Below the pieces are notes generated by a model. The model ran no database searches. It worked only from the letters and a program-made list of their open reading frames with translations, and was not told where the DNA came from. From Phoronis australis (taxonomy: Eukaryota; Animalia; Phoronida), in contig NMRA01000508.1 of the NCBI GenBank assembly GCA_002633005.1, forward strand, positions 165,250-229,249: a stretch of DNA of 64,000 nucleotides, written 5' to 3'. Position numbers and translations under genes: made by a program. Below, one piece after another: positions 2,749 to 53,071 of this stretch (its first letter is position 1; every line of letters starts with the position of its first letter).

Positions 2749-4625
2749 CTGGTCGCCTGGATATCGTACCTCAGGGCACATCAACTGGTTACCGATAAAT
2801 GCTTACCATTATCTTTACTATAAGAAAGAAAAACAAAGTGAACAATTGATACGCCTATCGAACGGTCCTTAAGCGACGAGATTACGACCACAAGTTTCCC
2901 TTGGGCGATGAGTAGTCTTGAATTGGAGCTTCACAAGAATTAGACATTATAAAAATGTTAAATCGTAAGTTAGTGTTCGTTTTAAATGTTAATCAGTTTT
3001 CCTAATACCCTATCAGCTGCATCAGCAAGAAAATCGGCGGAGCTATTAAAATCTAGGTGTTCGTCCAAATTTATGACTAAATATGCTTATATCATGATTG
3101 GTATTTAACAGATTCTGTCCCTAATTGAAGTTCAAAATTACCAACGTCGATTGATTTCCATCGGAAGTGCACGATTTTTGTTTTCGACCTATTTGGCACC
3201 ATGCACCACTTATAATACCAATTATTCAAAACATCTAATATCTCCTGTAAATCATTTTCATTTTCAGCCACAAACACTGCGTCGTCTGGATACAAAACAG
3301 TTCTCACGCCCTTGCCCCTGCAATTTGTCTCCCATACTAGTTCGTTGATCTATAATACAAATAAAGACTGGGAAAATGTGTTACCTTGTCTGACACCATT
3401 CTCACGATTGAACCAGTCTGTGTACAAAGTGTCGTTTAAACGAATAAAGCTTAGCGGGCTTTCATAAATCATTTTAATCGCAGATATATACGTCCTGAGA
3501 TACCATTTTTATCAACTTAAAAAACATGAATTTGTGACTACTCCAGTCAAAGGCTTTTTTCAAATCTATGAATGCCGTAAAAGTAGAAAGACTGGAAGCC
3601 TTTCGAGTCCTTATTAGAGTTGTTAAGACATGCAGTACACGTACAAATCATCAAGATAGGAGCGCTGTCTCCGGAAACCGTTTTGCTCATCTACAATAAC
3701 ATTTTATTTGCGTCACAAAAAATTGCCATCCTGTTGGTCAATACAGAGCTGAATTTTTTAAGTATTCGACGACATTCCTCTGTGGTATAACCGTGACCAA
3801 ATTTCAATGTCTTGCCTGGAAGGTTATCTATATCAACTGCTTTACCAATTTGGCACCCATAACTACTTTCCTGACCCCTTCAAGTTTTATATCACTATTT
3901 CAGACAGAAAGGTTGCAGTTACATGTACCTTCACTGCTACACGATGGATTTTCCAAAATTATTTTGTTTGTCCATAACATTTTGATAAAAATCACAGCAA
4001 AACTTTTATCGCTTGAATAATTTTGGAATAGCGTTTGAAAGTTATTTTTCCATTTTTGAGTATTTATGTTCAAAAAAACTCCATTGTCCGAATTTAGGAC
4101 TTTTAACTGTGACGTCACTTCGCTTATTGGGTGTATACCATTAATCGGACTGCCCAGACATTGTTTCAATGTGTTAGCCGGTGGTATAGTGTATCACCGG
4201 AAACATTTGAGTGCCACCTGTAGGTCTACAATTCAGCGAGTGTCCGGACACTCATTTGTATTACATCTGTGAAAGGCTCCGTGCCATAGAGTAAGAATTT
4301 TGAGAGAATGAAGGCTAATATGACCTCTTATTCCTCTTGAAATACACGTGCAATCGTGCGTTTTGCGTCAAATTTTTCTGCCTCGACCGAAAGCAGCAAA
4401 CAGACACTGACTTTCAAGAAAATCAGTGTCTGTGCACCGATTTCTCGCATTACCTTTCGAAATTTGAAAACTGTACAATCCTGCCAAACCGAGAACACAA
4501 TACAATCCATGTTTGAAACGTGTTTAAAACGAGGCTATACTTTTAAATATAAAAAGCCAATCGTTCACCGTTGGGATTGTACATGTGCAGTAAATGATGT
4601 ATATTCTGTTTCCACGGCAGGTACA

Positions 4626-4900
4626 ATGGGCAAGTGTGTTGTCCTACTGTTTGTGCTCGTCGTCATAGCGACCTTGGTGCACGAGGGGGACTCCTGGAGA
4701 AGGTTTCGGATTCGGCTTCCACGCATACGAATTCGTCTCCCACGTATACGGTTGCGTTTACCGCGTCTGCGTTTACCGCGCGTGCGCATTCGAGTGCGAC
4801 GATTGCTGCCCCGTATCAGGTTGCCACGATTTCGCTTGCCAAGAATCAGGGTTCCAAAACCACCCAAGTGTCCTGAACTCGACACCTCCAATTTCCTTAA
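4626..4900 (+). CDS. Cationic-precursor coding exon 1: signal peptide + Arg-rich repeat
   Basis: ATG at 4626 follows a pyrimidine-rich ...ttccacggcag element. Hydrophobic signal peptide, then (R-I/L-R-L-P)n. Donor GTGAGT at 4901, phase 2. Confidence 0.9.
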
Positions 4901-7900
4901 GTGAGTATTGCAATGGGCAGTCAATATGTGTTTATGTGATGAATGTAGTTATGTGCCGAAAAAGTGGAAATTCCTGTCAACACGTCACTCCTATTTTTCG
5001 TGTGCTAATCTGTATCAAAGAAGCTACATTGTATCTAAGAAACAACTTCATGTAGACGACTTGCCATTATGAAGTTGGTCTTAAATTGTTCCATAATCAG
5101 AGCGACAAATTGGCTTGTCACGACGTGTCATTTTATGCCAGAGCATGCGCTCAAAGGACAACGAACAGCCAGTTCTTTGGAAACCCAGAAATCACGTGTC
5201 CCCTAATCTAAGAAAGGAACAAGTTAAGAAAAAAGTTCAAAGCAGTGTGCAGCTTAAGTTGAAAGTTGACTTGTTTGACGAAACGCAAGGTTACTAAACC
5301 CTGTTTTGATGATTTCAACAAACCATCGTTCTATCACTTGCTAATACATCATTGGCGTCAATCTTGAAAGGTAAAAACAGGAAGGGATCTCCTAAAAACT
5401 TAATTCTCCCTACGTCACAGATTGAATAGTATGGTTCTTGATGGGTGGTTCTTCCCCACAGTCGCTTTGTAATTCGCTAAAATCTTAAGTCACGCTTGCC
5501 CGTGCATCAGACTTCGAAAGGGGTTTTCAAATTTTAGTCCAAAATTTTATGGGTGGTCACTGGTTATAGAGCATTATTTTGTTGCAAGGAATTGTACGGG
5601 AAAGTCTTTTTTAATATCTGTTAATAGGCGAAAACCGGGTTTGGTAACCCTTAAAGGGATTCCGTCAAAGTTCATACTGATCTGTGGATTAGAAGTTGTA
5701 AATTTAATTCTTTGCTTAGCGAAATTTCACTTATATAGGCTAAGACTGCAAAAGGTTAAGCCCAATTTTCAGTCATTGTTACGTGAGGTATTTGATTACC
5801 ACAACCTGGAAAAATTTATTTACAATGATAAATTGGATCCTGAGAGATTCCAGGCAAGGGGGTATTTTTTGCCTAGCAACTAGTTTTATAGGGTTCGATA
5901 ATGTTTGTAATTTGTTTGAGGTACTTGACTAGATTTCATATTGCTGTACAACTATATACTGGTTGGGAGAATTAATAAATGTTTTATTCAAAAAAATCAT
6001 ACTGACATGTTTACGTTATGATAAAACCAGATTTTGCTTCCTTATATAGTGGCATCGGCAAATGTTGTTTTTTTGCTTGATACCAGTTTTTACTATAAGA
6101 ATAATAACTAGAGGAAATCTTTCCTACCCAAAGTCACATGATCTCATTTAAAATACACGACAATATCTCACGTAATCTCGCGAAGTCTTGCTTTTAAGCG
6201 AGGTCCTCGCGCCAACGGGTTTTGCTTCCTTTAAAGTGGCATCGGCAAATGTTTTTGTGCTTGATACCAGTTTTTGAGGAAGTCTTTCCTATCTAACGGT
6301 AATCCCCAAAGTACGTTTTACGGTCCTGAAACCGACTGAGTCCCTTTCATAGCCAACCCAGAACTATGAGATCTTATTTAAGGCAGAACTAATTCCACGC
6401 TGGGATTGGCTCATTACAGGGAGGCGCTTTGTTCTGTTGACAACGGCGTCAAGAATAGCGGTTGCATGGAATTATGTCACGCATTTGGCGACATGTTCGA
6501 AGTTAAAGATTACAACGTGAAGTGCCCAGTTGCTTGCCAGAACCTTTGCAATCTTCCTAATTTGGGTAAACGGGTGAGTGTAGTAAAACTGCAACATCGA
6601 AGTGAAAAAGTTGCCTTACGTTATACCACCAACATGTGCAGTTATCAAATAGGTTTCAACAGATATCTTCTTAACACTGGTTTGAAGTGATTTTTGTGTT
6701 TGGATAGAGCTGAGAAGAAGTCTTTTTGCTGAAGATTAAGAATCCACTCCATTTTATGCACAGAAACCAATATGGCTGGTTACACCAAGGTACGTTGACC
6801 TGTCAATAGGTGGAGACAGTGATCTACATGTTCATGTATAAATGGGAACATTTGCGCATTTTGATTTGAATGAAACGGGAGTGTACTAATATAACTTCGG
6901 TCCCATTAAGATACTTTGGTACTTCAGTAGCCGATCATGAGCCGGTGTGCTTGGAACACATAGAATGAATTTCTTTTATTGGGTTTTGTCAATAAATTAT
7001 CAAAAATAAATAATATCCATCTAATGCTAACTCGAAGCTATTCACTTGGTGTCTCAAGCGAAGGAAGAGACCTTTCCATAGAAAAGCCTGCATTCAGGTA
7101 GATCGCGTGGCCCTTTATCACATCGTTCTGAGGGGCAGTGCACAAAGAGATCTACGCACATCGAATGCATATTAGGTCAGCTCATAGCTAACATACAGTG
7201 TATGCCGCTTAATAAACCATGGTGATTTTGCCTCGCGAGGGGGTGAGTCACTTGTTAGATTTTTTCACGTCACTGTCGCAAACCTTCACAACATGTCGGG
7301 GAGAAACCCAAGTTCTTCAGGCCAATTACAATCGCTTGCCAAAGAAAGTTAGTAATTGCCTTGACGACAACAAACCGTCACGCCCGCTCATTGAAACCGT
7401 GTGTACTGCATATACGTTGCTTTATTTACTGCGGTAGGATAATCAACAATTTACCTCGTAGTGGGAGGAAACAATGGCGTGAGCTAAATTGCACTTGAGG
7501 CACACAGCTCAGGTCGGAGCTCTCCGTCTGCGCTCGCCTTTAGCAGATCAAAAAGAGCAACCTGTATTTACCGCAAAGTGAATATCGAGTAGCGTTGGGA
7601 GGACGTGAAGGGCTAGGTCTTCCATAGTCATGTGACGTGGTTTGAGTAAATTTTCAAATTACATGCGATGTGATTGGTCTGTTTCAAATTACAAGCGATG
7701 TGATTGGCCTGTTTCCAAATTACATGCGATGTGATTGGCTTGTTTTCAAATTGAAGCTCTGGTTAAGTTTGTCTGAGTCGAGTCTGAGTTTGGAGAATAA
7801 ATCATCTTAGGCCCAGGATCCAAAATTATTAATCTCATTCGCAATCGTTGGTATAAAAATAATGCTCGTGATTGGTTACGTTTTCAAGGGTGAAATTCCC

Positions 7901-10900
7901 AGCGGGAATGACGACTTCAATTACTACGACGAGAACAAGGACAACAAGATCAGTAGCGCAGAACTGTCAAATGTTCTCAGAGTCAACGAGAGAGAAGTGG
8001 ACGAGAGGACTCTAGGAAGATTCTTCGTGGAGAATGATTTGAATCGTACGTGAACAGCTTTTGAAATTATTTATTTCTGCAAGCAGACATTGGGGACTAA
8101 TACGTGTAGGTAAAGTAAGCTCGTGGTTGTAGCACATGTCTCTTCAAGATAACTTACCGACAAGCCTGTACATTTAGTCACGTATTTACAAAAATATAGA
8201 AATTAACCCCGTAAAAGTATACATTTCCTGAAAGCAGAAACCGTATAGACTTTTATTTTTAGTTTTAATCAATATATCGTTAACTGAATTGCCTGCTACT
8301 GTTAGTAAAATTTAGCAAAAAAAGTGCATTCTCCGCCAATGTACATGTACGGTATCAATAACGTTAATCAAATTTCATTTAACATAATAATAGCTCAAGA
8401 CGAAGTCTCAGCTAAAAATATCATTTCGTTTCAGTTTTAAGCCGTTTTTTGTTTTACAAAAAATCATAGCAATTTTTGTTTTGATAGCTTCTTGCTCAGA
8501 AGTGAAATATTTAAAAAAAAACAAGTTCCATAAATGTTTTGGACTGAAAGCAGTGTATAAAGATTAGTGAATGAAGGTTTTACGTGAATTCAGTAAGCCT
8601 TTTCAGATTTATGATCTTCTAAATTTAGCTAAATTTGGACATTTCTTCTAGGGTCCCACACGATTTTAGTTGCTTTCAATTCTTTGGCAAATCCTTATCG
8701 GTCACTTTCAGACCTTTTGATTTTCGACCCTTTTAGTAATTTTTGAGTATTGACTTCCCTTAGTATGTGGGTCGACTCGCGCAAACGTTTACACACATAC
8801 AGGCATACAAAGTGATTCCCCTGAGCGCGTCGAAAGTTATTAGCTGGCTATGAACCCCACGGTCACTCCGAATCCTTCTTCAGTTCCCGGGAACGTCCAT
8901 ATACAATGTGGGTGCAAAAGTTTTCGGAACACACCAATTAATCCAGACACAAAAGTTTGTAAAAATGTCAAGTGTGAGAACGTGGTGTGACTGGGGACTT
9001 TCATTGCTATTTGTGGGTCCACATTTTCAATAATAATTTGGGTTTTATCATTGTTGTTTAAGACTAAATAATAAAATCTTTGAGACGCGATTCTGCGCGT
9101 AGTGATAACGACGATGCCGGCAGTGTACGTATCTCAAAGATTCATTATTTTTGAAGCACATATGATCATTTCTACAAAAATAAAACTTGCCCCATTGTGT
9201 GATGGTACAGGGCACGAACTGAGATAGTTCAGTCAGCGCCAATTCAGAGAAAAATATACCTCGATAGGTTGAAAATAACACAATTTAAAGTTATTTGATG
9301 AAAAGTGAAAAGAAATATACTTTTCTTTGAATGGCTTGATTTAAGGAGACGGGTTCTTGGACAGAGAGGAATTCGTGAAAGTTAACGAAAGAGAAAATGG
9401 TAAGTATGAATTAATCGATGTTCAAGTAAAAATGTTGTGTCTGTGAAAATATTACTAATTTAATTTCAGTTGTAAATGTATTTGAGCTGAAGTTTTTAAG
9501 AAGCGTGTAGTTTGTCCGTTAGTGATGAAATACATCTTTAGATTGCCATCAATATGTATGCCTGTACACTGAATTTGTTGTAGAGTACGTATTTTTATAT
9601 TATTTACGGGACATTATAAAATTGGTTGATATTTCTACAGAAGCTCTGGAAATGCTCCTGATTGCTTCAGCACTTTGGCTGAGCGTGATTTATTGCAAAT
9701 GTACAGTAGAATGTCACAGATGGTGCTTTAGCTCAGGCGTTTGGTGCAATGGGCCCAACCACGCAGCATGCGCAAGTCTGATGCATCACAAATTAAAGAC
9801 ATCAGGCCACCTGCACTTTTTTGTTTTTATTGTGATTTTGTAACTGTGACAGTTTCGTCGCTTTGACATTATGACGGCCTCGTACGTTGGTATATAAAAC
9901 TGTACACCTCTGGTACACTCTTCTTTCCCAGTGGTACGAGAGGTTTCCATATAGGTGGCGCTGTGACAGCGGATAACTGTAAGTGGGAATCTGGGCCCGG
10001 TTGTATTCCTTTCCTATGCTGCACGCGCTCCCGGGTATTTTGACGTTGCTTTAGGCCTAAAGCAGTAAAAATAAAATTTGATTTATACCACTTACCATTA
10101 CTGGAAGTCGCATTTTTTTAAGTTAGGTCTTAACGCCACCTCTTGGTCACATTACGTGACCTCGTGAAACTGATGTGGCAAGGACAGTTTGTCTGTTTCT
10201 TCAAATTTTAGAAATCATTTATCATTTCAATAAGGAACAGAATGAAACCAGTTTCGCGGCGGAAAGCGATAAATCAAAATATGTAATTTGGATGACGAAA
10301 AGCGTTTTTTTTTTTTCGTATGCATTCTAAATTTATTGCCCTTCTATTATTTGCAATCGAATGCGCCGTATACCAACTATTATCCAGCTCGGCAGAAGAT
10401 AACTGCGTTGCAGGGTGATATTTTTCAGGTCAAGAGGTCATTGGTGAAACAATCAACTTCCATAGAGCATTGAGATAAGTTCTAGTGAATAACCTTACCA
10501 GGAAGCATGTGCTTTTAATCAAATTATCAACAAAATTTCAAAATTGTATTCCGAAAAGATACATATTTTCTGAAAGTAAAAAGATCGTAAAATATAATTT
10601 CCTACTTAACAAATAATGTCTTCACAAGGCCATGTTTTCTTTTACTCATTTTTAGCAAAAAACAATGTTTCAGAAAAGATGAAGCATTTCACATAAATTT
10701 TCATGAACAAATCTAGAAAACAGTTCTCCAAATATTTTATTTTATGCAGCAGTTTTTAAAATGAAAATCGATATTTTCATAAAAATCATTTGAAAAAATA
10801 TGTGTACAGCCCCAGAAATCACTTTCGCATTATATCCAGGTTCTCATTCATTCCGTTGCATACACTCACTAGTACGGCCGAGCTGGGAAAAGTAGGAGAC

Positions 10901-13900
10901 ACGTTTGTGCAATGCTCGATTGTCTTCCAGTAAAGCCAGGATTCGAACATGGATCTCCTAAACGGAAGTCCGGAGCTCAAACCACTGAGCCACACCGTCT
11001 CCCCCATAAAATCATGAAACCCTTGATTTTGAAGATGTCTTATTAAAAAACAAGCCCTTTAAAACGAGTCTGGGAAACAAAGTCCATAGCATAGTATCTT
11101 ACAGTTTCATTTAAGTTGATTATCTGTTTTTGAGATAAGATGTTGGTAAATTTTCTCGTAGTCACAAAGCTAGACATCAACTTTTAACTTGGAGGTAGAT
11201 GTTTAGGCTAATATCGAAATAAATTAAGTACAGCATGAAAGCTGAACCCTTAATGGTCAGGTAAATTAGTTTGGATTTAAAATTTCTCACTTACAAATCG
11301 AAGTGATGCGATATTCATAATCATAAAAGAATCACGAGATTGTTAGTTTCAAAATATTTTTTTCAAAAGACAACGTTTTTACAAACATTACACACTTTTT
11401 GAGCAAAAAAATGAGGATAGCATACATGTACTAGGTGTATAATTACTAGACTATCTCTTTCAAATCATTATCAAGACAGAGTGTACTCGATGTAGTAAAA
11501 ATGTAATAGTGATTGAAATCCTTTCTTAATACGGAAAAACACATAAACAGAAAAACAAATATCATAAAAAATATCTACAAAAATACTACTTGTAAAATAT
11601 ACGGCAGGGCATCCAGAGTCTCTCTGAAACATTAACACCGAAATTGTCGCATAAAATACATATACGACACACGTTTCATTGTTGGCATGACGTCATCAGC
11701 ACTGTGCCCTTGTAAATCCATTACACAAGCTGAGAATGAGGACGCTTCTTTTTTAGACGATGACACGGAGGAATTCCTTCGGGAAATGGAAGAAGACGAA
11801 AATGACCAGACAGGTACATTAAGTCAAAAGATGCCATCAACACTGGATTAATATAACGTATACTTAAAAGTATTTAATTTTGGGAGCCTTCGTCACAACT
11901 CCACTAGTACCTCTTTTGTCACGGTTTTTCAGCAATTCCCCTCCGCGTTGCGTAAATTTCCATATCGCATGTCGCCCCCTCGTATCACGTTGCTACTGTT
12001 TTTAGCCAGTGGCCCTGCTCCCGCCCGCCCATCAACAAAACAGCTGTGGTGAAATGGGAGGATTTGGGCCCCTAATTTCTGACTCGGCGTTTATTTAGTT
12101 CGGTGCTGCAGCAGGCCAACATATCGTATTGTACGATCATAGAAAAATTCGTCTTAGCAAATCGTCTGTTCTGAAGTCGCACGGTGATTTGTTTCCTTCT
12201 TAGACGGCATCAGAAAACATGGAGGACCTGCCTTTTTTAGAGGGAGACCGTCTACTAGATACTTAGCGTTTAATAAGTTCAGCGTCCCTTGACCCCGGCT
12301 TCTATTAGAACGAAGCGTCGAAACCCGGGTATTGTTAGAAGTTTTACATGTACATGTACATGTACGGTACACACGGTAAGTGAGCATACTGTACGTCGTC
12401 TGCTCATTAACCGGAAGCCGAGGTTGGTATTGAAAGACTGGTGCATTCAGTGGAATTTCATAAGAAAATGTTGGAGTTGCGAATCTGTTGACTTATTATC
12501 TATGATTTTAGGCACCGATACGAATGAAGAGCATCCAGCCTAGTTGAAACTCTAACAAACTGATATTTTACTTCAGATGACAATGAAGTCCAGGATGAAG
12601 AGAAACGTCAATATTTGGATGGCCTGGAACAAAGAATGAAGGACAACGGTAAGGACGGGTGCAAGTCAATGACGGTCATACGTCAAACGCACTCACCAGG
12701 TTCGAATATGATAGACGATAAAAATGAATGCGTGAACCACAGGCCCTTGAATCTATTTGTTACCAGCACTCAATTTAATAAAACAAATACTTTCAAAACA
12801 CCAGAAATGTCTCTGCAACAAAAAGAATAAAAAGAGGATTTTCAAACTGCATACCAAAAAATAGCGATCGTAAAAATTATGCGCATGTGGGCTATATCTT
12901 TAGCCCGTATATCTTAAGTTTGTGAGGCCATCAAAGATTTTTGAAATATGTATCCTCTAATTTCACCGTAAGCGAAGGAAAACGTCCGTGTTTCACCACA
13001 CCCGATAAATAAATGAAGTCCATTGGTTCACACTGCTGACAGTAGAAAGATTCTATGCAGAGTTTTCCTCACGGACAATCTGCAGTAATATGAACAAAAT
13101 GCTTGTGTCCACCTACGCACATGGTAATTACCTGTACGTCAAACGGGATTATTGCTATTCAGATCACTGGCATGGTCGTGACATTATTTTGAGAGTTTTC
13201 ATCAAGCATATTAATTTGTTGATCTTTGCCATTTTGAAGAGCTGACTGAAGATGATGAGGCGGCCATCGCCCAACTCGACGAGGCAACAGGTAAGTATCA
13301 GATTTGGACAGTTCCGTACAAGCAGGATTTTCGAACTAACGCAATCACGGGTTTCGCTTATAATATATGGCGATATCTGCATGGGCGATGCACCAAAGTG
13401 GGGCTGGGGGCTATACCATCCCATTTTTTCAGTGCTGCGCTGCCCGTGATCTGGCATAGTGGTGCGTGATATTGAGTTTTCGTGAGGTTCTCTCGTCTAC
13501 AGAACGCACACCTGATTTGGAACTGAGAGAGGAAAACATTTTTAACTCAAAACTGGCCAAACAAAGTCTCTGAGTTTTATTTACCGGAGCACACAGTTTT
13601 AGTTGTCCATTTGATATTGATGCAGATATCACAAGTAAAGAAATAAGGAATTCCATAGCACTGTGTGTAACACACAAAAGTAGTTTGATATCAAATAGCG
13701 AAGCACATTTAAAAACTCTGATACAAGAACGGAGAACCTTGCCAATACAAAACGGCAATGTGTCATTCATGCTTAGAAGTGCCGAGATTCCACTTCTAGC
13801 CAAAATATAACTTTTGATTTAGATAATTTGTTGTTTTAATATAACTCGCTTTGATTTTGTTCCTTCATGGGAGTACCAACGATTTGAATCCATTAAACCG

Positions 13901-14229
13901 CCACTGCTCAATAGGATGGTTTGACCAGGCAGGTCTTTTTAAATGCGGAGAATGTTCCCAGCAAGTCCGATATATCACTTCTTGTTATGGAGTGTGGAAG
14001 TTAAGACCAGTTACACGACAACCCAAAGTTAGTTTTTGCGACTGAAGATGGGTTTACGTTATCTATACCTGTATAAGAAATCGATGACGTAAAATGTTAA
14101 GCTAGGTTGTAATGCTCGTCAAATGGTTTAAAACATTCGAAACCACTTCTGTAGATTGTTTGTGTTTGAAAATCAAGACGATTAATTACGATTTTTGGCA
14201 TGTTTCATATTTCAGCTAATGAAGAGTAG
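4626..14229 (+). CDS. Secreted Arg/Pro-rich cationic peptide precursor with Cys-rich domain, GKR site, two EF-hands and acidic C-terminal propiece (candidate antimicrobial peptide precursor), 286 aa, 8 coding exons
   Basis: join(4626-4900,6420-6573,7889-8045,9346-9399,11730-11813,12577-12648,13240-13290,14216-14229). All introns are GT..AG, phases 2,0,1,1,1,1,1 match, and the total is 861 nt ending in TAG. Translation: MGKCVVLLFVLVVIATLVHEGDS-WRRFRIRLPRIRIRLPRIRLRLPRLRLPRVRIRVRRLLPRIRLPRFRLPRIRVPKPPK-CPELDTSNFLKEALCSVDNGVKNSGCMELCHAFGDMFEVKDYNVKCPVACQNLCNLPNL-GKR-GEIPSGNDDFNYYDENKDNKISSAELSNVLRVNEREVDERTLGRFFVENDLNRDGFLDREEFVKVNERENAENEDASFLDDDTEEFLREMEEDENDQTDDNEVQDEEKRQYLDGLEQRMKDNELTEDDEAAIAQLDEATANEE*. 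Function is inferred. Confidence 0.85.
6420..6573 (+). CDS. Cationic-precursor exon 2: six-Cys domain ending GKR
   Basis: Acceptor cattacAG 6418-6419 (phase 2 matches); EALCSV...CPVACQNLCNLPNLGKR; donor GTGAGT at 6574, phase 0. Confidence 0.85.
7652..7752. repeat. ~28-bp tandem repeat, about 3.5 units
   Basis: Unit tttcaaattacatgcgatgtgattggYYtg repeated in intron 2 of the cationic-precursor gene. Confidence 0.85.
7889..8045 (+). CDS. Cationic-precursor exon 3: EF-hand 1 and start of EF-hand 2
   Basis: Acceptor ttttcaAG; loop DENKDNKISSAE; donor GTACGT at 8046, phase 1. Confidence 0.85.
9346..9399 (+). CDS. Cationic-precursor exon 4: completes EF-hand 2
   Basis: Splicing 8045 to 9346 restores the canonical loop DLNRDGFLDREE; donor GTAAGT at 9400. 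Confidence 0.85.
10833..11005 (-). mobile_element. tRNA-derived SINE-like element
   Basis: Minus strand begins GGGAGACGGTGTGGCTCAGTGG (A-box) ... GTTCGAATCC (B-box), then a non-tRNA body (gacaatcgagcattgcacaaa ... gtatgcaacggaatgaatg). The body recurs on the + strand at ~36956-37095. Confidence 0.65.
11730..11813 (+). CDS. Cationic-precursor exon 5: acidic tail
   Basis: AENEDASFLDDDTEEFLREMEEDENDQT; phase 1-1; donor GTACAT at 11814. An alternative in-frame acceptor exists at 11757. Confidence 0.75.
12577..12648 (+). CDS. Cationic-precursor exon 6: acidic tail with internal KR
   Basis: Acceptor ttttacttcAG; DDNEVQDEEKRQYLDGLEQRMKDN; donor GTAAGG at 12649; phase 1-1. Confidence 0.7.
13240..13290 (+). 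CDS. Cationic-precursor exon 7: acidic tail
   Basis: ELTEDDEAAIAQLDEAT; strong donor AG|GTAAGT at 13291; phase 1-1. Confidence 0.7.
14216..14229 (+). CDS. Cationic-precursor terminal coding exon (ANEE*)
   Basis: Acceptor tttcatatttcAG, TAG at 14227-14229, followed by a cluster of AATAAA signals about 220-245 nt downstream. Confidence 0.65.
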
Positions 14230-14446
14230 ACCTGATGACGCCGACTTGCTTTTGGAACATCGTACATCGTTGAGCGCTTCCTTCGCCTGTTTTCCACATG
14301 CTTGTGTTGCGTATATGAACAGCCTGTCCATTTGCATCACATACATGTAAATCTTGCAATATTTTATTCAGATCATTAAAAACAGCTAAAACAGATTATT
14401 TAGTCCAAAGCTTGATTCTTCAAATGATTATCTTCCCAAATCATTG

Positions 14447-18500: not shown

Positions 18501-21500
18501 TAGACAGCGATTATGGCAATAAAAATCCTATGGTCAACCTACAGTACACAACAACCTGGGCGCCGCACGGTACTTACCACATGTGTAATAGCGCCTCTAG
18601 ACTTCTTCCTTGACTGGACGTGTCTCGTTTTTATGTCAGTTGCCATGTTCGTAAGAGAAAGCTCCTGCCTAGAGCTTGCCTCCTTGTGAAACCATGCTCC
18701 ACTGTAGCTATCAAATGTGTACTGAAAAAGTATGCGTACTTATGTCTTACATATTCAAATTGTCGAGATTGCCCACCGACATTCTTACGTCTGTATTTTT
18801 TCAAATGTGGAAATACGAGCAATTTCTTAATTTGTAAATGGCCACCATTTTGAAAATCAAAATGCGATTGTCATCCAGGAACATTTTATGTTATATTGAC
18901 GTGTACTAAGTCATCCAAAGCTCGACGTAATGTACTTTATCACCATGCATACATGTGTACGTGTGTTAAGGCCAACAGCGTTTATTGTGACGCGGTGAGA
19001 GGATCCTAGCACAGCGGAAAAAGGCTCGAGCATACCAAGGCGGTAAACTAATTGAAAATGGATTGAATAGAGTTCACAAGGTAAAGAGATGTGCTGTAGT
19101 GAAAATGTTAATGATTAGGTTTACGGACCAGTGCAATGCTTGAGAAAAAGTTTCGGAAATGGTGCCGGAGTATTGCGAAGCGAATAACTAGCTACACATT
19201 ATGAAAGGAGCTTTATTCAACCGTAGTCTGTTTAGACTATCTCATCACCTGTGGTAAGAGAAGCCAGCCGTGTGTAGCCACTATATTAACGGCTTCGATG
19301 ATGTAGTCTATGACGTCATCATCAACAAAATAGGGCAAGTTGAGTCGGGTGAAACCTGGCCTGCAAATTAAATGAAAGTTCATAATATTATCAAATTTTG
19401 TCCTCTTGCGTATACTGATGCAACGAATTTTAATCAAAGTCAAATTTACCTAGTTGTAACAAGAGAAACGCTGAGCGTTGAAATGCGCCAACGAATGCAT
19501 CGCAAATGGTGTGCTTTTAGGGTTGTTTATTTGTGTCATAAAAACTTTCAATACATCCAAAACCAGGAACATGTCATTGCTTGTTTAAAAGAAAGCTATA
19601 CACTAAATTTCATAGAAATCCGTCGCGGAACCTCATAGAAACAAAGGAAAACAGAATAAAATGAAATTGCCACTACGGGGCACAGTGTTCATTGGATCTG
19701 CCTGAAAGTCGTCATTGTCCGTTGTTAGCTTCATATAAATACACTTACTAAATTCAATAAAGATCCTGGAGTGGGTTTAGGAGACACAGCTAACAAATCA
19801 AAACAACCACTAGGAGGCGCAAAAGTAGTCAAAGTCGTCATCGTCAACCGTCCTCTTCACACCGAGAACATACACGCCACTTTTCAAAACCCTCCTTAGA
19901 ATGATTTGGTTGATAGAGGGGTAGACGCCAAAAACAGACAGCAAAAATGTTCCCTAGGTGGCGCAAAATACCTTGATTCCATCCCAAAACGGGAGGATAG
20001 CCTTATCCCACCAATAGATTCCGTATTCAAAATTTAATGAAAATCGCCGGGTAAAGGACCTTTGACGATTCTGAGTTAAACCTAAAACTAAAATTGGCAG
20101 AAGGAGGCACACCGGTAGTCAGATCTATCCGAAAACAGTCGTCGTCCGTTGTCAACATCATATCAACACACTTGTAAAATTTAGCAAAGATCCTGCAAAC
20201 GGTTTAGGAGATACAGCCATGAGCGCAAAAAAACGAAACTGCGACTAGGAGGCGCCACAGTAGTCGAAGTCGTCAGAGAATCATCGTCAGCCATCCACTT
20301 CATAGCAAAAACATACATGTCAATTTTCATAATTATCCTGAAAGCGGTTTGGCAGATAGAGGAGTGGACGCCAAAAAACAGANACGGAGATGACGGCATA
20401 ATGCCTCCACATATAAATATGTGGGTGCATAAAAATTATTCGAGCGTCATATGCGCTTTTACGCATGCATTTTGACACACATCCATGAAAACAGTTATGA
20501 TCGAAACAAAATTTAGATGCAATTCTCAAATAAACATGAATGCAGCTGAGGTACACGTACGTTACGCTGGGAACACGTTGTGGCCGTATTTCAATAAGGT
20601 TCCAATTCTCCAAACATCATCTTAACGACTACTCCACACCCACGTGCCACATCAACTAATGTTTGCTTTGTAAGTAAACGTTTCCGTGGCTTTCGAATTT
20701 TACTTACTTCATCAGCGACATTGTCATCGGAGGCTCAATTGTCGGTGTACTGAAATATGGCAAAATGCGTCATGTAACAGAATAGGACTGGACGTCATTT
20801 GTAGTTGTTGTACAACTGCAAATGCTCATTTGCAAAGGTAGCATCTGAGAATTGTACGAACATATCCATTTCAATGAAAAATGTAGTACTGTTTGCAACA
20901 AATGTGTAAAAACACAGTTTGTATTATAAACCCCTTTCGACAATTTTCAATATTCTTCTCGAGTATTTTTCACGACTTTACCACAATTTTTGTTTACTTA
21001 TATACAGACCTTATAGTGGCGGACACGCCGTCCATAGCTCCGGTCTTCACTTGTCTCTTATTTTGCTAGGTTTGTTTTCTTATGTTTGTATATTATTAGA
21101 ATTACCTCGACAAACTATCTCGGTGTCGTTCCTCTAGCGGTGTGAGAAAGAAGAAAAATTTCGATGCCAACGATTCGGAAATTCCGAGTAGATCCTAAGG
21201 AGATAATGATCACAGTTATAAGCAGCTACATGGTAGCTAGGGCTTAAAACAATTACTTCTTAATCCGACAGACTGCTGTTTGAAGTTACCATTGTTTTTT
21301 TTTTGTTTTTAAAGCAAACTTCAAAGGTGACATACTCCATTTAAGCACAGTGTGCCAAGTCCGTGTCTGGTCATTCCAAATAAGGAAGCATGCTTTTCCT
21401 TGTTAGAGGAAAACCAACCAAGTGACGAGCAGCTGACAGCTCTTCTGACATTTTTAAAATTCAAGAAAGTTGCGTTTACATCAACATAAATTCAAAATGT

Positions 21501-24500
21501 TTGCGGACACACCGTAAAAATATCTGGTGAACAGGTTGAATTCTGTTTCAGTGGCAGAGAACAACTTTGAATGATGCAATTTAGCCTGTTTTCGCGTTAC
21601 AGGCCTCTTTAACATCGCAAATACTTGTAAGTAGGATGCAAAATAAGCATATACCTCGGCGTAAGGTCCAGCGCATGCGCATCCACCACGTGACTGTATG
21701 CCGAAGAGGTCGTTGAGGACAGCCGCCACAAAGTTGTAGTGAAGCAACGTGTTTGAAACTGGATGACGAATGAGAAGCGAGAATATCGGTATTCTCTTCG
21801 CCGTGTGACTTCCCAGCACGACCAGGTTCTTGTTCCTTTTCCAAACCTTGAACGCTCTGTTGCATAACTCGTGTTCTCGTTGTTTGAGAATCAAGCTGTC
21901 GACGTTCTGTCACAAAAATGTTCTACAGTTAAACACAGCAACGGTTGCAGTGGGTTTCAAATAAGCAAACTGAACGTGTCTCATTCACTTGAGTAGGAAA
22001 ATATTGAGCAGGACGAATTAATAAATAAAGCTCAGTAGCTCACTCGCAACTGTAACGGCCTGAAGCACTGAAGGCGGGATGACAGGGTCAGGGACGTGTC
22101 GCAATCCGGGTCCCGCCCGCCCAGATCCTACCAAACAAACGGTGCCAACATGAAAACTGTTAGAGCTGTCGTGGTCATATTTTATGTCTTGATATGCTAG
22201 ATTCATAGCGCACGGATTCCATCCACCTTTGAACCATTTTGGCATCCAATGATTTGTGCATGTGTAAGACTTCGATCGTGGGAGTTTTATCTCTTCTCAT
22301 CGAAATATTTGTTCAATTCGGAACCAAACAACTGTCTATATCACATGATGTTGAGTAGAAGTAGCCTTTCTCACAAAAACCTTCACTTACCCATTTACTA
22401 CATTACAGCCTAGTACATGTACACTAGTCACCAGCCGACTAGAGAGACCTCTTTCGTGAAAATGTCATCACTTACCATCTTAAGCTGGAAGACCAACCCT
22501 GCACGAATGGCTTCCACAATAGCCGGTGTTCCACCTTCTTCTCTTGCTTCAATGTCTTCAACGTAACGATGGGCTTCACGGGTAACCTATGAGAACAGAA
22601 AGTTGGCAACACGTACAGTAATAAACTCAATTGTTTATTGAGAGGGATGTTTTGTTCCTTGTAAACAGCAGGTAACTAACAATGAAAGACGTCAAGCCAC
22701 CAAAAGATTTACCGAAAACTAATAAAACAGACTTTAGAAGACGAACAGCATAAGGAAACCAAATGGAGTGTGTTTCAATATGGATGGCTAACAGGTCTTC
22801 ATGAAGTTACGTCCCTTCAGCAGGTATGGTAACCGTGATCGATAGGCAAAATCACAGACTTTTCTTTCAATGATATTTTAGAATTTCAAAAAGTAAGCCA
22901 TTGAATCTCAGTTCAGTTTTAAAAGTAACAATCATTTCCATATTCCACACTTCATCGATACGTGTACATGAGGTGAAAGAGCAACTCCGGTGTACGTACG
23001 TAAACGACTGTTCCACCACCGCAACAGTGTGGCACCTTGTTCTGGAACAACTTCCGTTTGGCAATAAGTATTCCTGGCGTGCCAGGACCTCCAACGAACT
23101 TGTGTGGGGAAAGAAACACAGCGTCTTTACTCCTGCAACACAAGACCTCAGTTCCGTGGATAAGATCAAGAATCTGCGGTCGCCTGTACATAAACTGCAC
23201 GTTTCGGTGTTGCAACAGTCAAGAAAAAACAAAATAGGAAAGAAATATTGCTTACTCAACCTGGGCTGCGTTTTTTCGACGCAATAACCTCGCTTAAATC
23301 CAAGACTTTGCGAAATAACGCCGTATATTCCAAGCTGAGCACGAGAAGAATTTCTCGCAGTTTTCTTGGGTCCACGGAACGCAGCCCTGGTAGCAAATGT
23401 TGAGATAAACGTACTGCGCTAATTCCCACATATATTTTTTATTTTTTATATAATATGTCATAAAGACTCCATTTTGTCAAATGTGTTGAATACAACGAAA
23501 TCCCATATAAATAAAAAATAATGCACTTTTTTCTACCTCACCAACAATGTGGAAATGTACTTTGTCCGGCTCTTCATTTTTAATTGTCAATGACGTCATT
23601 GTCACTTGTTTCCTTTGACATAAGGCATGCACTCTGAACACAAATTACTGTATCACTTCCTGTCGTCGCAAACATCAAGCTAAATGCTTATACAAATTTA
23701 CATTTCCCCGTTATTTATATTTATTTTCCCAGATATCATGTAATCTTAAAATTTATAGATCTTATATGCTAGTCGATTCTTGGTTAATTACGTCAAAATT
23801 GTGTGAGTTTTTTCTTAAAATAAGCTCAGATGGGAGAGGCAGCCCTCCTTGAATTGAATATGCGGCGGACGTTACTACAGAGCTAAAGTTGGGTAACTGG
23901 CCTCATACATATAGATAATGCACATGTTTACCAAATTTCACGCTTTTATAGAATTTGAATGATTTGACTTTTAGTCATGCTTTGTTGCTACCGTCATCTC
24001 AAAGCACACTTACGTCGAAATTGACGGATTGACATCAATGTCTAAATAAGGTCCTGCTGTAGCATAATCCCAAAACACGTGGCCGCCATACTGGTGGACA
24101 ACACGCGTAATCTCGTTGGTATTCGTGATGATACCCGTGATGTTGCTCGCAGCGCTGAACGATGCGATGATGTTGAAGTCGTCATTGCAATGTTGCTGCG
24201 AATAGACGAGAGGCAAACTTCAGAAAAACGACTTTAGCAGGTACAAACCAATTACAGAAGGACGGAAAGTTTGCATACAATCTTGAAAGATCGGCAAAAG
24301 TGATTTATTGCACTGATAGAAAAATCGTGATCGGCGGAACATTTGCCGAACATAACTGCAACTTGTCCCATGTAGCGAGTATCAATTTTTTCAGGTCAGT
24401 TCAGATTGAAATTAGATAAAGCTTTCTGAAAACGAATGCAATATTTGTTTAAACGGGTATTTTAAATACAATCGACGTCAGATTTAAGTTACCCTTATGG

Positions 24501-27500
24501 TCTTCTTAATTTACGAGAAGACATTGCCGTACATTGGTTCTCAAGAACAAAGAAAACCTCCAAGCTTAACGATAAATCTACCAATTACTTATGGATTTGT
24601 CTAAGAGAAATTTCACCTTTAACTGGAGCACCAGGTCGGACGTATTTATTTGTCCACCGTGTTTAGTCTCTGATATCCGCACAACTTTTGCTCCGACTTC
24701 CTTCCACGGTAAAATATTCGAATGGTGCTCGTAGGGGCCAACGAACACCACCTGCATGTGAATAATGAGGAAGAGATTTTATCATTTTGGTTAGAATAGT
24801 CTTGAACACGATGACAAATAAATGACCACGGCAACAATGGTGATGGCGAATGAACGCGCTTCCTCACCAGACCAGCACCCGTGTTGTGTAAAACATATAC
24901 GAAAAATTGAAATTGACGGTTTACTCACCGTCTTTTTGTTGCTTTCTCGAAGATTGAGTACTCCAATTAGCTTGTGCACAGCCCCTGTGACGCCATTTCC
25001 GGTAAATATAACAACGTCATCTTCCGACGCGTTCACGCATTTCTTGATTATTTGCCTAAGGGAAACAGAAGGCACATATTCTACACCATGACTTTTAATT
25101 TTCAACATTTGATGTTTTGAAGAAAACTGGCCGATTGCTCTTGATATGTTTAGGAAAGCTTAGCAGCTTGAAAATGTAAAACGACGGTGGCAGAAATTCC
25201 TCAAATTGCAACTTTTGACGTTTTGTAATGATGCCAATGCATATTGACATATATCTCCCTTTCCAAGAACTTCAACGGTACCAGTCACTGGAACAGTCAT
25301 TTCGTTACTCCGCAATCGTACCTAGCTTCCTCCCGTAGATATTGGGTGGTTCGCCCTGTAACGTTGGCAGTTGTGTGTGTGTTGGCGTATAACTCGTACA
25401 CCTGGTCAATGATGAATTGCTCCATGTAGCGCAGAGGCCGACCAGAGGCAGTGTAGTCACAGTAGACGACTAAAACGGAAGTGAGAAGTGACGCTTATTG
25501 AAATATATCGGTTCGACACAAATCCACGTCAGATTCTCCACTTCAAGGATTACATGGGTCAGTTGGTACTATATTTAAGTCCCGTTCACACAAAGAATCA
25601 ATCCAGCACAACTTGCACTAATGCACAAACATACATGTATTCACAAATAATTATATGTAGCTAATGGCGGATGTTGTCGCTCTGCACATGAAAATAAACT
25701 TCGCTGATGAGCGCGAAACGAATGACATGTATGTGTACTGCGCAAGCTCGCAGCAGATAATTTCTTACGCCTTGCGCCAGGTTTGCGGCCACACGGCGAT
25801 TAGGAGTGACGCAAAACTTACCCTAAAACAACTGTTATCTTTCCTACATAGTGTGGACAAAGTTGTCACAAGTTAAAATAACGTCCAGTGTACAGCTAGC
25901 CCCAAAACTTAGAAACAACTCATTCACACGGAGTAACTTGCTTTAGGGTAAATCTGTACGTGGACGGCACATTTATTTGATGATTCAGGCCCCCAATTTC
26001 AAAGAGGTACTGTCAGGGCTAACGCTAGCGTTTTTCCTTTAATACCAGTAGTTGTCTCCCCTGTAGACATTTTACATCGGCAAGTTTAAAGGAGAATGCC
26101 ACCCGATTTAATTAGTCTTTTTTGCCGTCTTTATCGGTCTATATCCAAATCGCCTCGCATACGATCGACCTTACCTTGCCAAGAGGTGTCGCGTTAACCT
26201 GTGAGGAAGGTGAGAAACGACGCTAGCGACGTCTGTGGTTCATATGCAGAGTGAATGCCGCTATGTTTCGGTGCATCGTTCCCGCTTGTCCAAACTAAGC
26301 AGTTGCGAGGAAAGTGGGTATAACGTTTTTTTTTACTTCCTCGAGAGTCTGAAATGCTTAGGAAGTGGCTCATGGTAGTGAAGAATGAAGTGTACGCTGT
26401 AAATAGCAAGTATGAGGCCGTAAAACATCTCCGTGTCTGTGGCCTGCAGACGCCGACAGTGCCTGACGAATGCCGGCTTACCAAACAACTCCATACGTTC
26501 CGTTGTCTGAGCTTGTTCACGGCGCCTCTCTAGTATTTCTTCATCACTGTATTCCTGTTCGAATTGATATCTTGTAAAACTTACGATCCACCTGCGAAGT
26601 CGGGACTGATGAGCTCTAGCTCGTCCTAAGTCGGGATTGCCAGTTGCCATGTTGGTGTTTATCATTGAGCGTTCTGTTTCAAAATGAATTATTCTCACCC
26701 TAACCAATACTTATATAAAACTGAAACAAAGTATAGTCTCATTAGATGCAATTTGTAATGCCTTTGGAGTGTTCGTGAGAGCAAATGATTTGAGAAGCCA
26801 GCAATGAATAAATAAATCACTGCGTTACCGGCTTTAGGTGCAATAAAACTAATTGACGGTACACCTAGGCCGTTTGAGCTTATGCTAATTTAGTTTTTTG
26901 TTGGCAGAAACTGTTGTGAAACAACTCAATTTCCATCCCACGGCCAGGTGTTAGGGGAATCTTTATTTACATTTACATTACTCAAATAATGATTGTCAAT
27001 GTACAACTTCTGCCCTGACGGTGCTGTGGCCAAACCGGAACCCGACTCTCGCGGCCCCCGACGGTGAGTAAGTAGATTTGCGGTTTCGTGGCTAATTCAC
27101 CAACATAATCAGGTGCACACTACTTTGGCTCACTAGTATAGTATTTTCTTAACTGGAAGTTTAGTTTCCACTGAACTTTGGCTGATTTATGTTCGTGATG
27201 TCTGATCAGTTTACGAGCCACTGGCGGGGATAACGAGTCAATCCGACCGGCCGCAACGGGCTTGATCGTGCTCCGAGCCACTGGCCAGGCTAACCAGGGT
27301 TTTGTGTTGAGAACTCAAAAAATCACAAGTCTAAACAACACAGGTCTAGATTTTCCTGTCTGTATCTCATGGAAAATACTTCGAAATTATCTATTCCGAC
27401 CCCAAACTCCTGCTACGGACCTCCGTCATTGGTCTGCCGAACTTTGTAGGCTACGGTGTGTCCAGATACCAATAAATCCGTAATAGCGAAATAAAACAAC

Positions 27501-29033: not shown

Positions 29034-30032
29034 CGGTGGGCCAGATTTTGTAGGGCCTCTAGAAAATGGTTTTTGTGAGTACTTTAGGGGGGCAATTTTA
29101 TTTTGGTGTTTTTTAATTCATTTATTAGAGTGTTTTCAAAATCTAAAAAGTTCCCACATATAAAGTTGCACATTTTTTAGAAATTTGAGTTTGAGGTTAC
29201 CTAATAATCACCAAAGAGCTTAGTAAACTTACATGTATATTTGTAAAAACAACAGTTTTGGTGACTTTTTTGTAAAACAAGTAATATGGTCCCATCAGTG
29301 CCATTGTATTGAACAATATTACACTCACATTACATGTTTTACTATTGTAGATTAATTGTAAACAGTGAAATTTAAAAAATGTAAAGAGAACCTAGTGGCA
29401 AAAATGCAAACTAAGTCTGAATGTTACTAGGAAGTTATTCTGGCATTGTCAGGCAACGAAAATAATACAAAACACTTGAGACTGGGCACAATTTGTGCCT
29501 CAATGACTAAAACATTGACTAATGGTGTAAAATACAGCTTGTTTGCATAATACACAAAAAATACGTAATAGTACAAAAACAATATAGTTGAATGATCTCT
29601 GTGAGTGTGCACAAAGACTGTATGAAAATAATAGATTATTCTGACAGCGTTTATCAAGCAGTATGAGACAAATACATGACAATGATCAAAGTATGTACTT
29701 TCTATGACTTAATCAATAAATAAAATTAACTTTTTAATACAAAAAAGGAAAACCGGGTTGGAGGTCTATTTAGGATTGACTTGTCAAAGAACTATCCAAT
29801 GTTATGAAGTCAGTGTTGCTGATGTTACTACAGTTGTCACAGCTGCACATTTCTGTACAGTTTGACCCAGCATTGCAGCACAAACTCAGTTTCCCAGCAC
29901 ACATGTGCTTTTTGCACTTGCAGCGTTCATCGTTTAGTACTGTCCATGGAGATGCTGTCATTGCCAGGCATATTAACTGCAAAGCTCCACAGCCAAGGAG
30001 CCAACTATGGTCGATTAGAGAGGGTGCAGCAC
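29034..30032 (-). mobile_element. DNA-transposon 3' remnant with Cys-rich (CXC/Cys8-type) finger, Academ-like
   Basis: ORF 29770-30057 reads PSLIDHSW..W..RCKCKKHMCAGKLSLCCNAGSNCTEMCSCDNCSN, resembling the PSP..HGW + Cys8 C-terminus I recall for AcademX proteins. AT-rich sequence follows up to the n join. Family tentative. Confidence 0.5.
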
Positions 30033-30815
30033 TGGCTACGTATAGGCTCTCCCGCAATATGCCAGGCGACCGGCAATGGTGCTGCGCACTACGACTCCGT
30101 TTCCGCCGTCTGCTTTCCTGTGCAATGAAGAAAATTACTTCATTTTTTAAAGAAAATGGAATCTGAGTGACGATGAAAAAACAGAAGCTGCTGGTAAGAT
30201 GTGAATTTTAGTTGAAGCTTTAGTGAATCACTCAGAAACTCATAATTCTCTCTTTGTCAAACCTTAACTTAAGACGATTTCCAAAGTAATCGCGTCATAA
30301 ATGCCAACACAAAAAACGGATTTGTTTTTTTGGGCAATTGAAGACTATTTTAAGTACAACAAATTTGTTACGAACTGATTGAATAAAATATAGAAAGTGT
30401 AATAAGCATTACAAAAAGAAGTAAGTTTCGGGCGCAAACGCTGTGGACCATAAACAGGTAGGTATCTTATTACCAAATTATGAGTGAAATCGTGGTGGTG
30501 CAGTGGTAAAGCACGCGCCCTCTATCCGCCAGATCGTGAGTTCGACTCTGAGATAATTGCAGTTTCTTATGTTTGATTGACACGTTCTCCGATTTTTTTT
30601 ATTTTTTTTTTTATATTTTTCTTTGCCTTTTTTTCTTGGATAATACTTCAGGAATCAAGGAAAATGCTTGATTTTTAGAGGAGAAAACAGAAAAATTTTA
30701 TTGGGCGCGAGGGGGTTGGCACCCATTCGGTGCTATGCGCATCTAATCGTGCTTTGCACAAATGTTTTCAGACAAAATGTTTGCCCCCTGTTGTGATATC
30801 CTAGATCCGCCACTG
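30033..30815. mobile_element. ~0.75-kb non-autonomous repeat (copy 1) with internal tRNA-like A/B boxes, ending GATCCGCCACTG
   Basis: Colinear, high similarity to 41813-42524. gtggtgcagtggtaa..gttcgactc at ~30493-30548. The end is the reverse complement of the CAGTGGCGGATC terminus common in invertebrate MITEs. Confidence 0.75.
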
Positions 30816-36802: not shown

Positions 36803-36955
36803 GCCTCCCGTACAGTAACGCGAGGACTTCGCTAAAAAGCAAGACTTCGAGAGATTACCTGAGATATTGCCCAGTATTTTGAATGAGACCAAGTGACTTT
36901 GACTAGATTTTAGCTAGGTCCTAGCGTTGGTCTTAGCGTTACTGAACGCACACCC
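36803..36955 (-). mobile_element. Inverted copy of the 1560-1710 MITE
   Basis: Reverse complement matches (gcaagacttcgagagattacctgagatattgc ... gctaggtcctagcg ... ttactgaacgcacacc). Confidence 0.7.
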
Positions 36956-50900: not shown

Positions 50901-52142
50901 AGGGTAAAATTTCAACAAAAAATACTTTGGCTGCTATATGATAGGTAAAGTTTCAAAAAACAATATACTCATCATGCATTAGTCGATTGTTAGGGTTTGT
51001 CCGACAGATACGGTTTCAATAAACGTTCTTCATGGTCGATTAATTGATAGTTAGTGTGCTGTTTTATGGTACTAAGCAAACGTGCCTTGAAATATTGTCC
51101 GATCAGTGCAACTTCGCATTCGTCCGTATGTCAGAAATGCTCGTTTCCATTAATGCGCAATACATAACGCGATGCGTTTAAATGGCTTTAGCGATAAATA
51201 AAAGAAACGTTTCCATGTGTACGTACATGTAAGCGTAATCGCGTAATCCGTGTCTCCTCTTCAGAAGGCTAGGCCTACAGGTGTATACATAAACGATGGG
51301 GAAAACACACTGCAGTGCCAATTCACCGAGTGAGATGTCAAAATAACAATTGCCTACCCTCCACCCTCAGGAAGGGACAAATTTTTGTTGTCTTTTCCGT
51401 CCTACATGTGCATCCGTGAGTTTTAAACCAAAACGTTTGTTTTTGTGACAGAAGGCAGGTTTACTGTGCATCCGCGTCGAGTGGTTCAAAGCCGCCACTA
51501 GACCTCTGCTCGCAAGAAGAAAACCATCATTTTTATACGTTTTACATAAATAAACAATAAGATGATGCTAAAGCTGTTATTGTGAATATTTACGAATGCA
51601 TATATGCGAGAACGAGACTGTTGTAGCCTATACCTTAATTCTTTCGTACGAACTGAAACCTTTTTTATTGCTTTTAAATTAAAATTTCAGGTACTTGAGA
51701 ATTGACTTCACGCGAAGAAGCTATTACTGAAAATTATCTCTTGCAAGCTGGCGTTGAAACTGTAGCAAATAAAATTGGCCATTAATACGCACTCGGTCCA
51801 GGGTTTTATCTCCTAACTCGATTATCAGACTCGAAATTTGATCATGAGTCACGCAGCTCGATTCAAGTACAGATTTGCAAATTCACTCTAAGAGTAACAT
51901 GCACTAACAGGTCAATTTTCGAGTTAAGTTTCGAGACCCCGGGCCCAGAAGGCAAGAACAGCTAAATGTACGTAAAGTATTGTTATCTATTCGGATTATT
52001 TTGACACGAAGCGTTCACTTCCGCGGAGCTTTTCAAAAAATTACGGAAATATGATTTCTCTGTAATTCATAAACGAGATAATAAATTTCAGTGAATTGCG
52101 TTAGTCTTGCAGGACCCGGCCTAAACCACCATCCACTCTTTN

Positions 52143-52590
52143 TGTCATCTGCATAAAGGTATGTGCTACATGACAGGTTATCAGGAAGGTCATTAATATA
52201 AACCAAGAAGAGAAGAGGGCCCAATACGCTACCCTGCGGTACACCTGCGTTTACAAATCCAGGATGGGATAAAATTGAAAGTACGCCATCGACACGAACA
52301 CTGTATGTTCTTTCGGAGAGATATGAGGTGATCATGTTTAAAAGATTACCAGTAATGCCATAGGATCGAAGTTTGTGAAGTAGAAGGTCGTGAGGGACAC
52401 AGTCGAAAGCAGAAGCTATATCTAGAAAAATGGACCTGACACTCTCTCCCTTCTCAAAATGTAAATGAATCTCATGTACTATTTCAACAAGTTGTGCCAC
52501 GGTGCTGTTCCCACGCAAAAAACCAAATTGACGATGATAGATCAAGTTGTTTTGTTTGAGAAATGTAAGAATACTTTGAGCAATGAGCAT
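52143..52590 (-). mobile_element. CR1-group LINE reverse-transcriptase fragment
   Basis: Uninterrupted frame: [63 protein letters not shown]. 5'-truncated; the 3' side is cut by the n at 52142. Confidence 0.92.
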
Positions 52591-53071
52591 ATTGAGTAGT
52601 TGTAACAATTGCCATAGCTTATCGCGAGATTTAGACCAAGACAACAATCTTTGGAGGTTGCGCGTTGGTTTGGCGACTGTCAGCTGGGGGCATACAAGTA
52701 GACTTGACCGCGACCTCGCTGGTTTTGTCAAAATAACCAGCCAAGACATCTTATTGGTTCTCGATGACGACTTCCGGTTTTAATGAAGTTATGACATTGA
52801 TCAAAGTAGTTTCTTTGTGTCAGTGGTTTTCTTTTTTTTCATTAGATTACTCTATCTTTGAACTGTATTGTTCTGTATACGGACAAGTGTAAAGTCCGCA
52901 ATGGAGATGTTCATTCAGTCAAGGCATTCATTCATTTATTCATCGAGGGCACACTGGTTATTGTCATCATAAAAATCTAAAAATCACGTCTTTCAACCCA
53001 CAAAAAGGTGAACACGCCGTAATAATACCACTGGCCTTGTTTTGAATCCTTGTGATGAATATGCATATCCG

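Follow-up and report, generated by a model that had tools for sequence, protein, structure and literature searches.

Described families of defence peptides provide the closest comparisons for the locus examined here. Myticalin precursors consist of a cationic peptide, a dibasic site and an anionic extension, and the peptides are reported to be membrane-lytic (PMC5577615; PMC11678341); Gly-dibasic processing, together with the anionic extension, is described for this family (PMC5577615). Mytimycins also carry an anionic extension behind a dibasic site, in this case an EF-hand extension whose role is stated as unknown (PMC8004829). Class I proline-rich peptides are reported to require a PRP core, and longer, more hydrophobic forms of Bac7 to permeabilise more (PMC11678341).

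The gene described here lies in a 64,000-nucleotide stretch of the Phoronis australis contig NMRA01000508.1 (hereafter the window), whose DNA is animal-like with a GC content of 40%. Reads of three RNA runs (X2–X4) and the contigs of a fourth (X1) define eight coding exons separated by seven GT..AG introns on the + strand (Table 1). The spliced exons encode 277 residues, and an Arg-rich repeat is located in the first coding exon. The joint between 4900 and 6420 is covered by 137, 368 and 7 reads in X2, X3 and X4 respectively and is also found within an X1 contig, while the joint between 9399 and 11757 is present in the three raw runs and did not appear as a junction among the X1 contigs. Expression in the three raw runs was about 69, 276 and 10 RPKM, these values being rough as depth was taken per bases read.

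Table 1. Features of the repeat-bearing gene, numbered from the first letter of the window.
Feature	Position	Strand	Evidence
Splice acceptor (AG 4619-4620) and 5 nt of 5' UTR	4619..4625	+	RNA reads
Predicted signal peptide, residues 1-23, cleaved before Trp24	4626..4694	+	Hydropathy, small residues at -3/-1
Cationic Arg/hydrophobic/Pro repeat, residues 24-81	4695..4868	+	Composition, codon analysis
Remainder of coding exon 1 (Cys82, linker), then a phase 2 GT donor after 4900	4869..4900	+	
Coding exon 2: six-Cys domain, Gly-Lys-Arg at 6565-6573	6420..6573	+	Cys and Gly-Lys-Arg all kept in P0006
Coding exon 3: EF-hand 1 (loop 7928-7963); EF-hand 2 loop begins at 8036	7889..8045	+	
Coding exon 4: remainder of EF-hand 2	9346..9399	+	
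Coding exon 5: acidic tail	11757..11813	+	
Coding exon 6: acidic tail; second basic pair, also in P0006	12577..12648	+	
Coding exon 7: acidic tail	13240..13290	+	
Last exon: stop 14227-14229, 3' UTR, AATAAA at 14447, 14459, 14463 and 14467	14216..~14472	+	

In all four runs the RNA reads stop at 4618 with a common loose end. A 12-letter leader precedes the exon at 4618-4621 in each run, and X3 adds two rarer, longer leaders. These leaders most likely represent upstream exons beyond the window, and a pattern search of the 64 kb with two of them yielded no credible match for an upstream 5' UTR exon. A 182-residue open reading frame starting from a GTG at 4356 was rejected, the reads beginning only at 4618. 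A 119-residue frame on the - strand (4565-4924) was likewise rejected as a shadow, because splicing and the orthologue described below fix the frame and transcription proceeds from the + strand. Across the four RNA samples, the sole difference in exon 1 reaching 2% is a silent change within the signal peptide, and the repeat is unchanged. For X1, the listed differences include at least two that change an amino acid in exon 3 and at least one in exon 2 that is silent. The coding exons are nearly identical to the window, whereas in the 3' UTR (14243-14410) the runs show several fixed differences from it and a 6-base deletion. No paralogue of the gene was found within the 64-kb window. Intron 1 contains a short interspersed repeat (6129-6211) with copies at 1613-1695, 2666-2733, 36819-36901 and 23287-23320 that are 85-94% alike, and this element collects numerous RNA reads that stem from other loci, on either strand.

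Residues 24-81 form a 58-residue Arg/hydrophobic/Pro repeat with 23 Arg, two Lys and no Asp or Glu (net charge +25), made up of 40% Arg, 40% Ile, Leu, Val, Phe or Trp, and 17% Pro. The sequence-only reading of this DNA had counted seven Leu-Pro-Arg units followed by Ile, Leu, Val or Phe and then Arg. All seven nonamers were located (at 4716, 4737, 4758, 4773, 4806, 4821 and 4836) in the frame of the ATG at 4626, and every one of them has this continuation. The same reading held that the unit is conserved as protein and not as DNA, and the codons agree: among the seven units, identical codons occur in 17 of 90 same-residue pairs, the level of random synonymous choice (17.8 +/- 3.8 under uniform choice; 19.4 +/- 3.5 when codons are shuffled across the region). 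Seven L-P-R-hydrophobic-R units never arose in 100,000 residue shuffles (mean 0.10, maximum 4), and charged and hydrophobic residues alternate 35 times as compared with 19.8 +/- 3.2 in shuffles, where the maximum was 33. The repeat is thus a real, selected protein feature. A Pro at every 5-7 positions, as had been proposed, describes most of the gaps (7, 7, 5, 11, 5, 5, 5) but not the one of 11. The further claim that the array is no slippage microsatellite holds for the silent sites, which are random, but needs amending for two neighbouring pairs of units that retain a DNA duplication signal, at 4710-4750 (period 21, 85% matches) and 4753-4786 (period 15, 89% matches). Because these pairs keep the duplication while silent codons look random, tandem duplication probably built up the array, with silent sites drifting later and residues held at the protein level.

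The repeat is one part of a larger spliced precursor and not a free peptide. By treating it alone, the sequence-only reading had identified a genuine element but missed the Cys domain, processing site, EF-hands and acidic tail that accompany it. In the 277-residue protein the predicted signal peptide (1-23) and the repeat (24-81) are followed by a seven-Cys domain (82-140), Gly-Lys-Arg (141-143), the EF-hands and the acidic tail, and the net charge is +21 over residues 24-140 and -33 over residues 144-277. Hydropathy of the signal peptide reaches 3.84 across 11 residues. Small residues at positions -3 and -1 mark signal-peptide cleavage, and such residues precede the Trp start both here and in four relatives. 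Gly-Lys-Arg is a likely cleavage and amidation site, judging from its sequence. Canonical EF loops have Asp or Asn at positions 1, 3 and 5 and Glu at position 12; two 12-residue loops with these residues start at residues 157 and 193. Pfam EF-hand_5 matched exon 3 alone below the family cut-off (E 7.8e-5), and EF-hand_1 matched the orthologue above it, in two stretches (E 9.7e-12). Calcium binding is predicted from the loop sequences.

The seven Cys are spaced 13-10-3-15-3-3, and their domain is slightly acidic and has no clear match to a family or solved fold. Pfam gave nothing for exon 2 beyond E 0.1. A model of the exon 2 domain built from two sequences (pLDDT 75) comprises a short β-hairpin and a helical hairpin. 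When it was compared with 48,161 chains, none reached Z 5; Luffin P1 (Z 3.7, rmsd 3.5, 38 aligned), a disulfide helical hairpin in which pairs of Cys-x3-Cys secure a helix-turn-helix, is tied by unrelated chains. Foldseek returned nothing at E 0.001 for either this model or that of the orthologue. The single-sequence model of the orthologue is weak (pLDDT 59), and in it the repeat adopts neither helix nor strand.

Relative searches returned 11 distinct proteins, one of which, P0006 from a Logan contig, is full length and orthologous to the window protein, with about 50% identity. It aligns in order to six exons and nowhere else in the window. P0006 retains the Trp start, the repeat, LGKR, both EF loops (at 153 and 190) and the acidic tail, with a charge balance of +20 versus -37. 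The repeat is the best-conserved region, with 40 identical of 52 aligned residues; the Cys domain, EF part and tail have 29 of 61, 34 of 67 and 32 of 66, respectively. Loss of the Arg periodicity or frameshifts in orthologues, which had been named beforehand as evidence against the repeat, were therefore not found in P0006, nor was the repeat altered in the RNA samples. All seven Cys are kept, with equal spacing from the second onward. No basic pair between the repeat and the Cys domain is common to the two proteins.

Five further proteins carry a Trp-started repeat directly behind a likely cleavage site, with differing continuations. P0002 and P0010 are Paralvinella palmiformis proteins whose gene models both look incomplete. 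The P0010 repeat is followed by a PGRP-like domain (E 6.5e-6 to 1yck), and P0002 aligns by eye with P0010 over this part. P0003 has a different Cys domain behind the repeat, plus Gly-Lys-Arg, and in P0008 and P0009 an acidic pro-segment stands before the repeat. For the Cys domains of P0003, P0008 and P0009, Pfam gave no family and profile comparison no match to that of the window protein. At least four domains are thus joined to the repeat: the Cys domain of the window protein, the PGRP-like domain and two other Cys domains. In three prokaryote-like proteins (P0001, P0004 and P0011), long Lys/Arg-hydrophobic-Pro repeats with a five-residue period adjoin a hydrophobic stretch, and the Trp start is lacking; one is named from a Heimdallarchaeota genome and one has a SPOR domain. 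Their repeats are possibly a convergent membrane-surface motif. Such a repeat can therefore arise independently, and by itself is no proof of defence. P0005 and P0007, two of the three HMMER matches of exon 2, were dropped as unrelated, the matches being driven by the repeat. A word search with exon 2 among longer proteins left one candidate and found nothing. In the Atlas, exon 1 had no usable match and P0006 matched only EF-hand clusters, under 0.9. A metagenome scan gave four loci that match the EF-hand only (33-35%) and were set aside, and a phage search gave zero matches.

The precursor shares with the myticalins and modiocalins of mussels a signal peptide, an Arg/Pro-rich cationic segment, a dibasic site with an amidation Gly and an anionic extension (PMC5577615, PMC12294457), as well as an intron immediately before the ATG. 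In addition, D-type myticalin pseudogenes start with Trp-Gly-Arg-Arg, similar to the window repeat (Table 1 of PMC5577615). The layout is thus that of a myticalin, but with a Cys domain between the cationic region and the dibasic site. Myticalins are described as Cys-free, 17-47 residues long and, in group A, built of PRX triplets, and the available text of their descriptions makes no mention of EF-hands (PMC5577615, PMC12294457), unlike the window protein with its five-residue period, seven-Cys domain and EF-hands. The reported mature myticalins of 23-42 residues (PMC5577615) also differ from the 117 residues with seven Cys predicted here. Myticalin genes are described with three exons and an anionic extension interrupted by a phase 1 intron, whereas the window gene has eight coding exons and a first coding intron of phase 2. 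No named myticalin was among the matches of the relative searches.

A Cys-rich mature peptide followed by a dibasic site and an anionic EF-hand extension is common to the window protein and the mytimycins (PMC8004829). However, the mytimycin variant described there has a 54-residue, antifungal mature peptide with 12 Cys, compared with seven here, and its description in the available text contains no Arg/Pro repeat. From crustaceans, arasins, penaeidins and hyastatins share a Pro/Arg N-terminal part and a disulfide C-terminal part within one mature peptide (PMC11678341, PMC11767717). The Cys arrays differ in number and spacing, with four Cys in arasin 1 and six in penaeidin-1; arasin 1 has PRP motifs, the cationic part of all three is much shorter, and the available descriptions contain no EF-hand propiece. 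By analogy, the window precursor may be likened to a two-part arasin or penaeidin set on a mytimycin-type precursor, from which it departs in Cys array and gene structure. Apolipoprotein B100 likewise has a hydrophobic/Pro five-residue period, with a weak profile match at residues 2686-2747 (E 0.0011), and its structure is described as containing proline-enriched amphipathic β-hairpins (PMC11839476). Being a giant, non-cationic lipoprotein, it offers a repeat-driven analogy and no homology. A literature search by title or abstract and by motif strings, mostly outside subscription papers, found no description of the precursor family, which is apparently undescribed.

In each of the seven proteins, the window protein and its six relatives, the hydrophobic moment of the repeat was maximal at 144-154 degrees, and not at 100, 120 or 170-180 degrees. 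This agrees with the amphipathic extended strand that the sequence-only reading had suggested. Among six patterns of ideal-geometry chains, two faces formed in the three whose units contain two or three residues of polyproline type, which turn by 138-150 degrees per residue and hold Arg and hydrophobic faces apart. Lasting faces were absent from pure β, from pure polyproline II and with one polyproline residue per unit. These results fit an extended ribbon with two faces, the argument being a geometric one based on models.

We consider it probable that the repeat heads a secreted, amidated, cationic host-defence peptide that would permeabilise anionic microbial envelopes and be held inert by its acidic EF-hand propiece; the antimicrobial role proposed earlier is in this respect likely, as far as the sequence can tell. 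Signal peptidase would release Trp24. The acidic EF-hand part would offset the charge of the repeat in the secretory pathway, perhaps in a calcium-tuned manner. A convertase would cleave behind Lys-Arg (142-143), with the Gly consumed in amidation, giving a mature product of 117 residues (24-140), 14.0 kDa and net charge +21. The five-residue period would set an Arg face against an Ile/Leu/Val/Phe face, and the resulting ribbon would disrupt the membrane on binding LPS, teichoic acids or anionic lipids. The disulfide domain would remain attached, and two chains may be linked through its odd seventh Cys. The sequences of P0010, with the repeat adjoining a PGRP-like domain, and of P0008 and P0009, with acidic pro-segments, are consistent with such a peptide. 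Against it, none of the four samples shows variation in the repeat, which is single-copy in the window, whereas myticalins are hypervariable and multigene.

Conservation of the EF-hands and tail is roughly on a par with that of the Cys domain, a high level for a propiece that is merely discarded, and fits a function of their own. Together with the invariance of the repeat and the single orthologue, this keeps two other readings in play. The product is unlikely to be a secreted toxin or signal directed at eukaryotic cells, with the Arg repeat as membrane anchor or cell-entry tag and the amidated disulfide domain as the active part. The amidation site and the compact, conserved Cys domain in its own exon would suit this role, as would the occurrence of the repeat on at least four different C-terminal parts, which is expected of a delivery tag; however, the Cys domain is slightly acidic and of no clear family, and the sole nameable partner, being PGRP-like, points to bacteria. 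A matrix, mucus, glue or mineral protein, in which condensation brings together the polycation and the calcium-binding polyanion, or either of them and sulfated polymers, would account for the blocks of opposite charge, the two canonical EF loops, a tail conserved like the rest and expression that is high only in some samples. Since the conserved Gly-Lys-Arg and Trp start suit a processed peptide, and proteins free of EF-hands also carry the repeat, we regard this as quite unlikely.

The Bac7 and PR-39 ribosome mechanism raised by the sequence-only reading is not supported by comparison with the class I peptides. Like Bac7, oncocin and pyrrhocoricin, the repeat is Arg/Pro-rich; its Pro content falls inside the 14-49% of proline-rich antimicrobial peptides, its Arg-Leu-Pro-Arg lacks a single residue of the usual core, and arasin 1 is described as having both modes of action (PMC11678341). 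However, a large hydrophobic residue replaces Pro after Leu-Pro-Arg in all seven window units, and such residues make up 40% of the repeat. The PRP count is 0 in the window protein and its six relatives. Because class I peptides need this core, entry through SbmA and blockage of the ribosome tunnel is very improbable. Further, the predicted mature product is 117 residues long with a disulfide domain, no shared cleavage site would free a short peptide, and myticalins without the core are reported to have no ribosome action (PMC5577615, PMC11678341). That the repeat is functionless, low-complexity slippage drift is largely refuted and next to untenable: the surviving duplication signal in two unit pairs speaks for it, but residues are kept while silent sites are random, and no region is more conserved in the orthologue. 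A protamine-like role was rejected on account of the predicted signal peptide.

More tentatively, marine invertebrate immunity may use the Trp-started (Arg-hydrophobic-Arg-hydrophobic-Pro)n as a portable module that targets envelopes, forming a two-faced ribbon with about 2.5 residues per turn that is neither helix, sheet nor polyproline. Four or more unrelated effector domains would have been attached to it, and acidic pro-segments, preceding it in some proteins and following it in others, would keep it inert, in the window protein with calcium as the switch. If the host-defence reading is right, the gene represents an undescribed precursor family with a simple, synthesisable repeat whose geometry is unlike helical, β-hairpin and polyproline scaffolds. 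The residue after Leu-Pro-Arg, hydrophobic or Pro, would then offer a direct test of lytic versus ribosome-binding proline-rich peptides. It would also provide a second, apparently independent EF-hand propiece on a defence peptide, beside the mytimycins.

Elsewhere in the window, exon-like frames on the - strand at 21481-21909 and 24791-25159 gave no Pfam match for the pieces; we take them to resemble a cysteine-desulfurase or class V aminotransferase gene. Also on the - strand are a weak match to the tesmin/TSO1 CXC domain (29773-30204, E 0.0019) and a fragment of a retroelement reverse transcriptase (52036-52776, E 1.2e-20). Finally, two + strand frames (54197-54478 and 61976-62257), for which Pfam gave no useful match, have signal-peptide-like starts, followed in the first by an acidic run, and are possible first exons of other secreted proteins.
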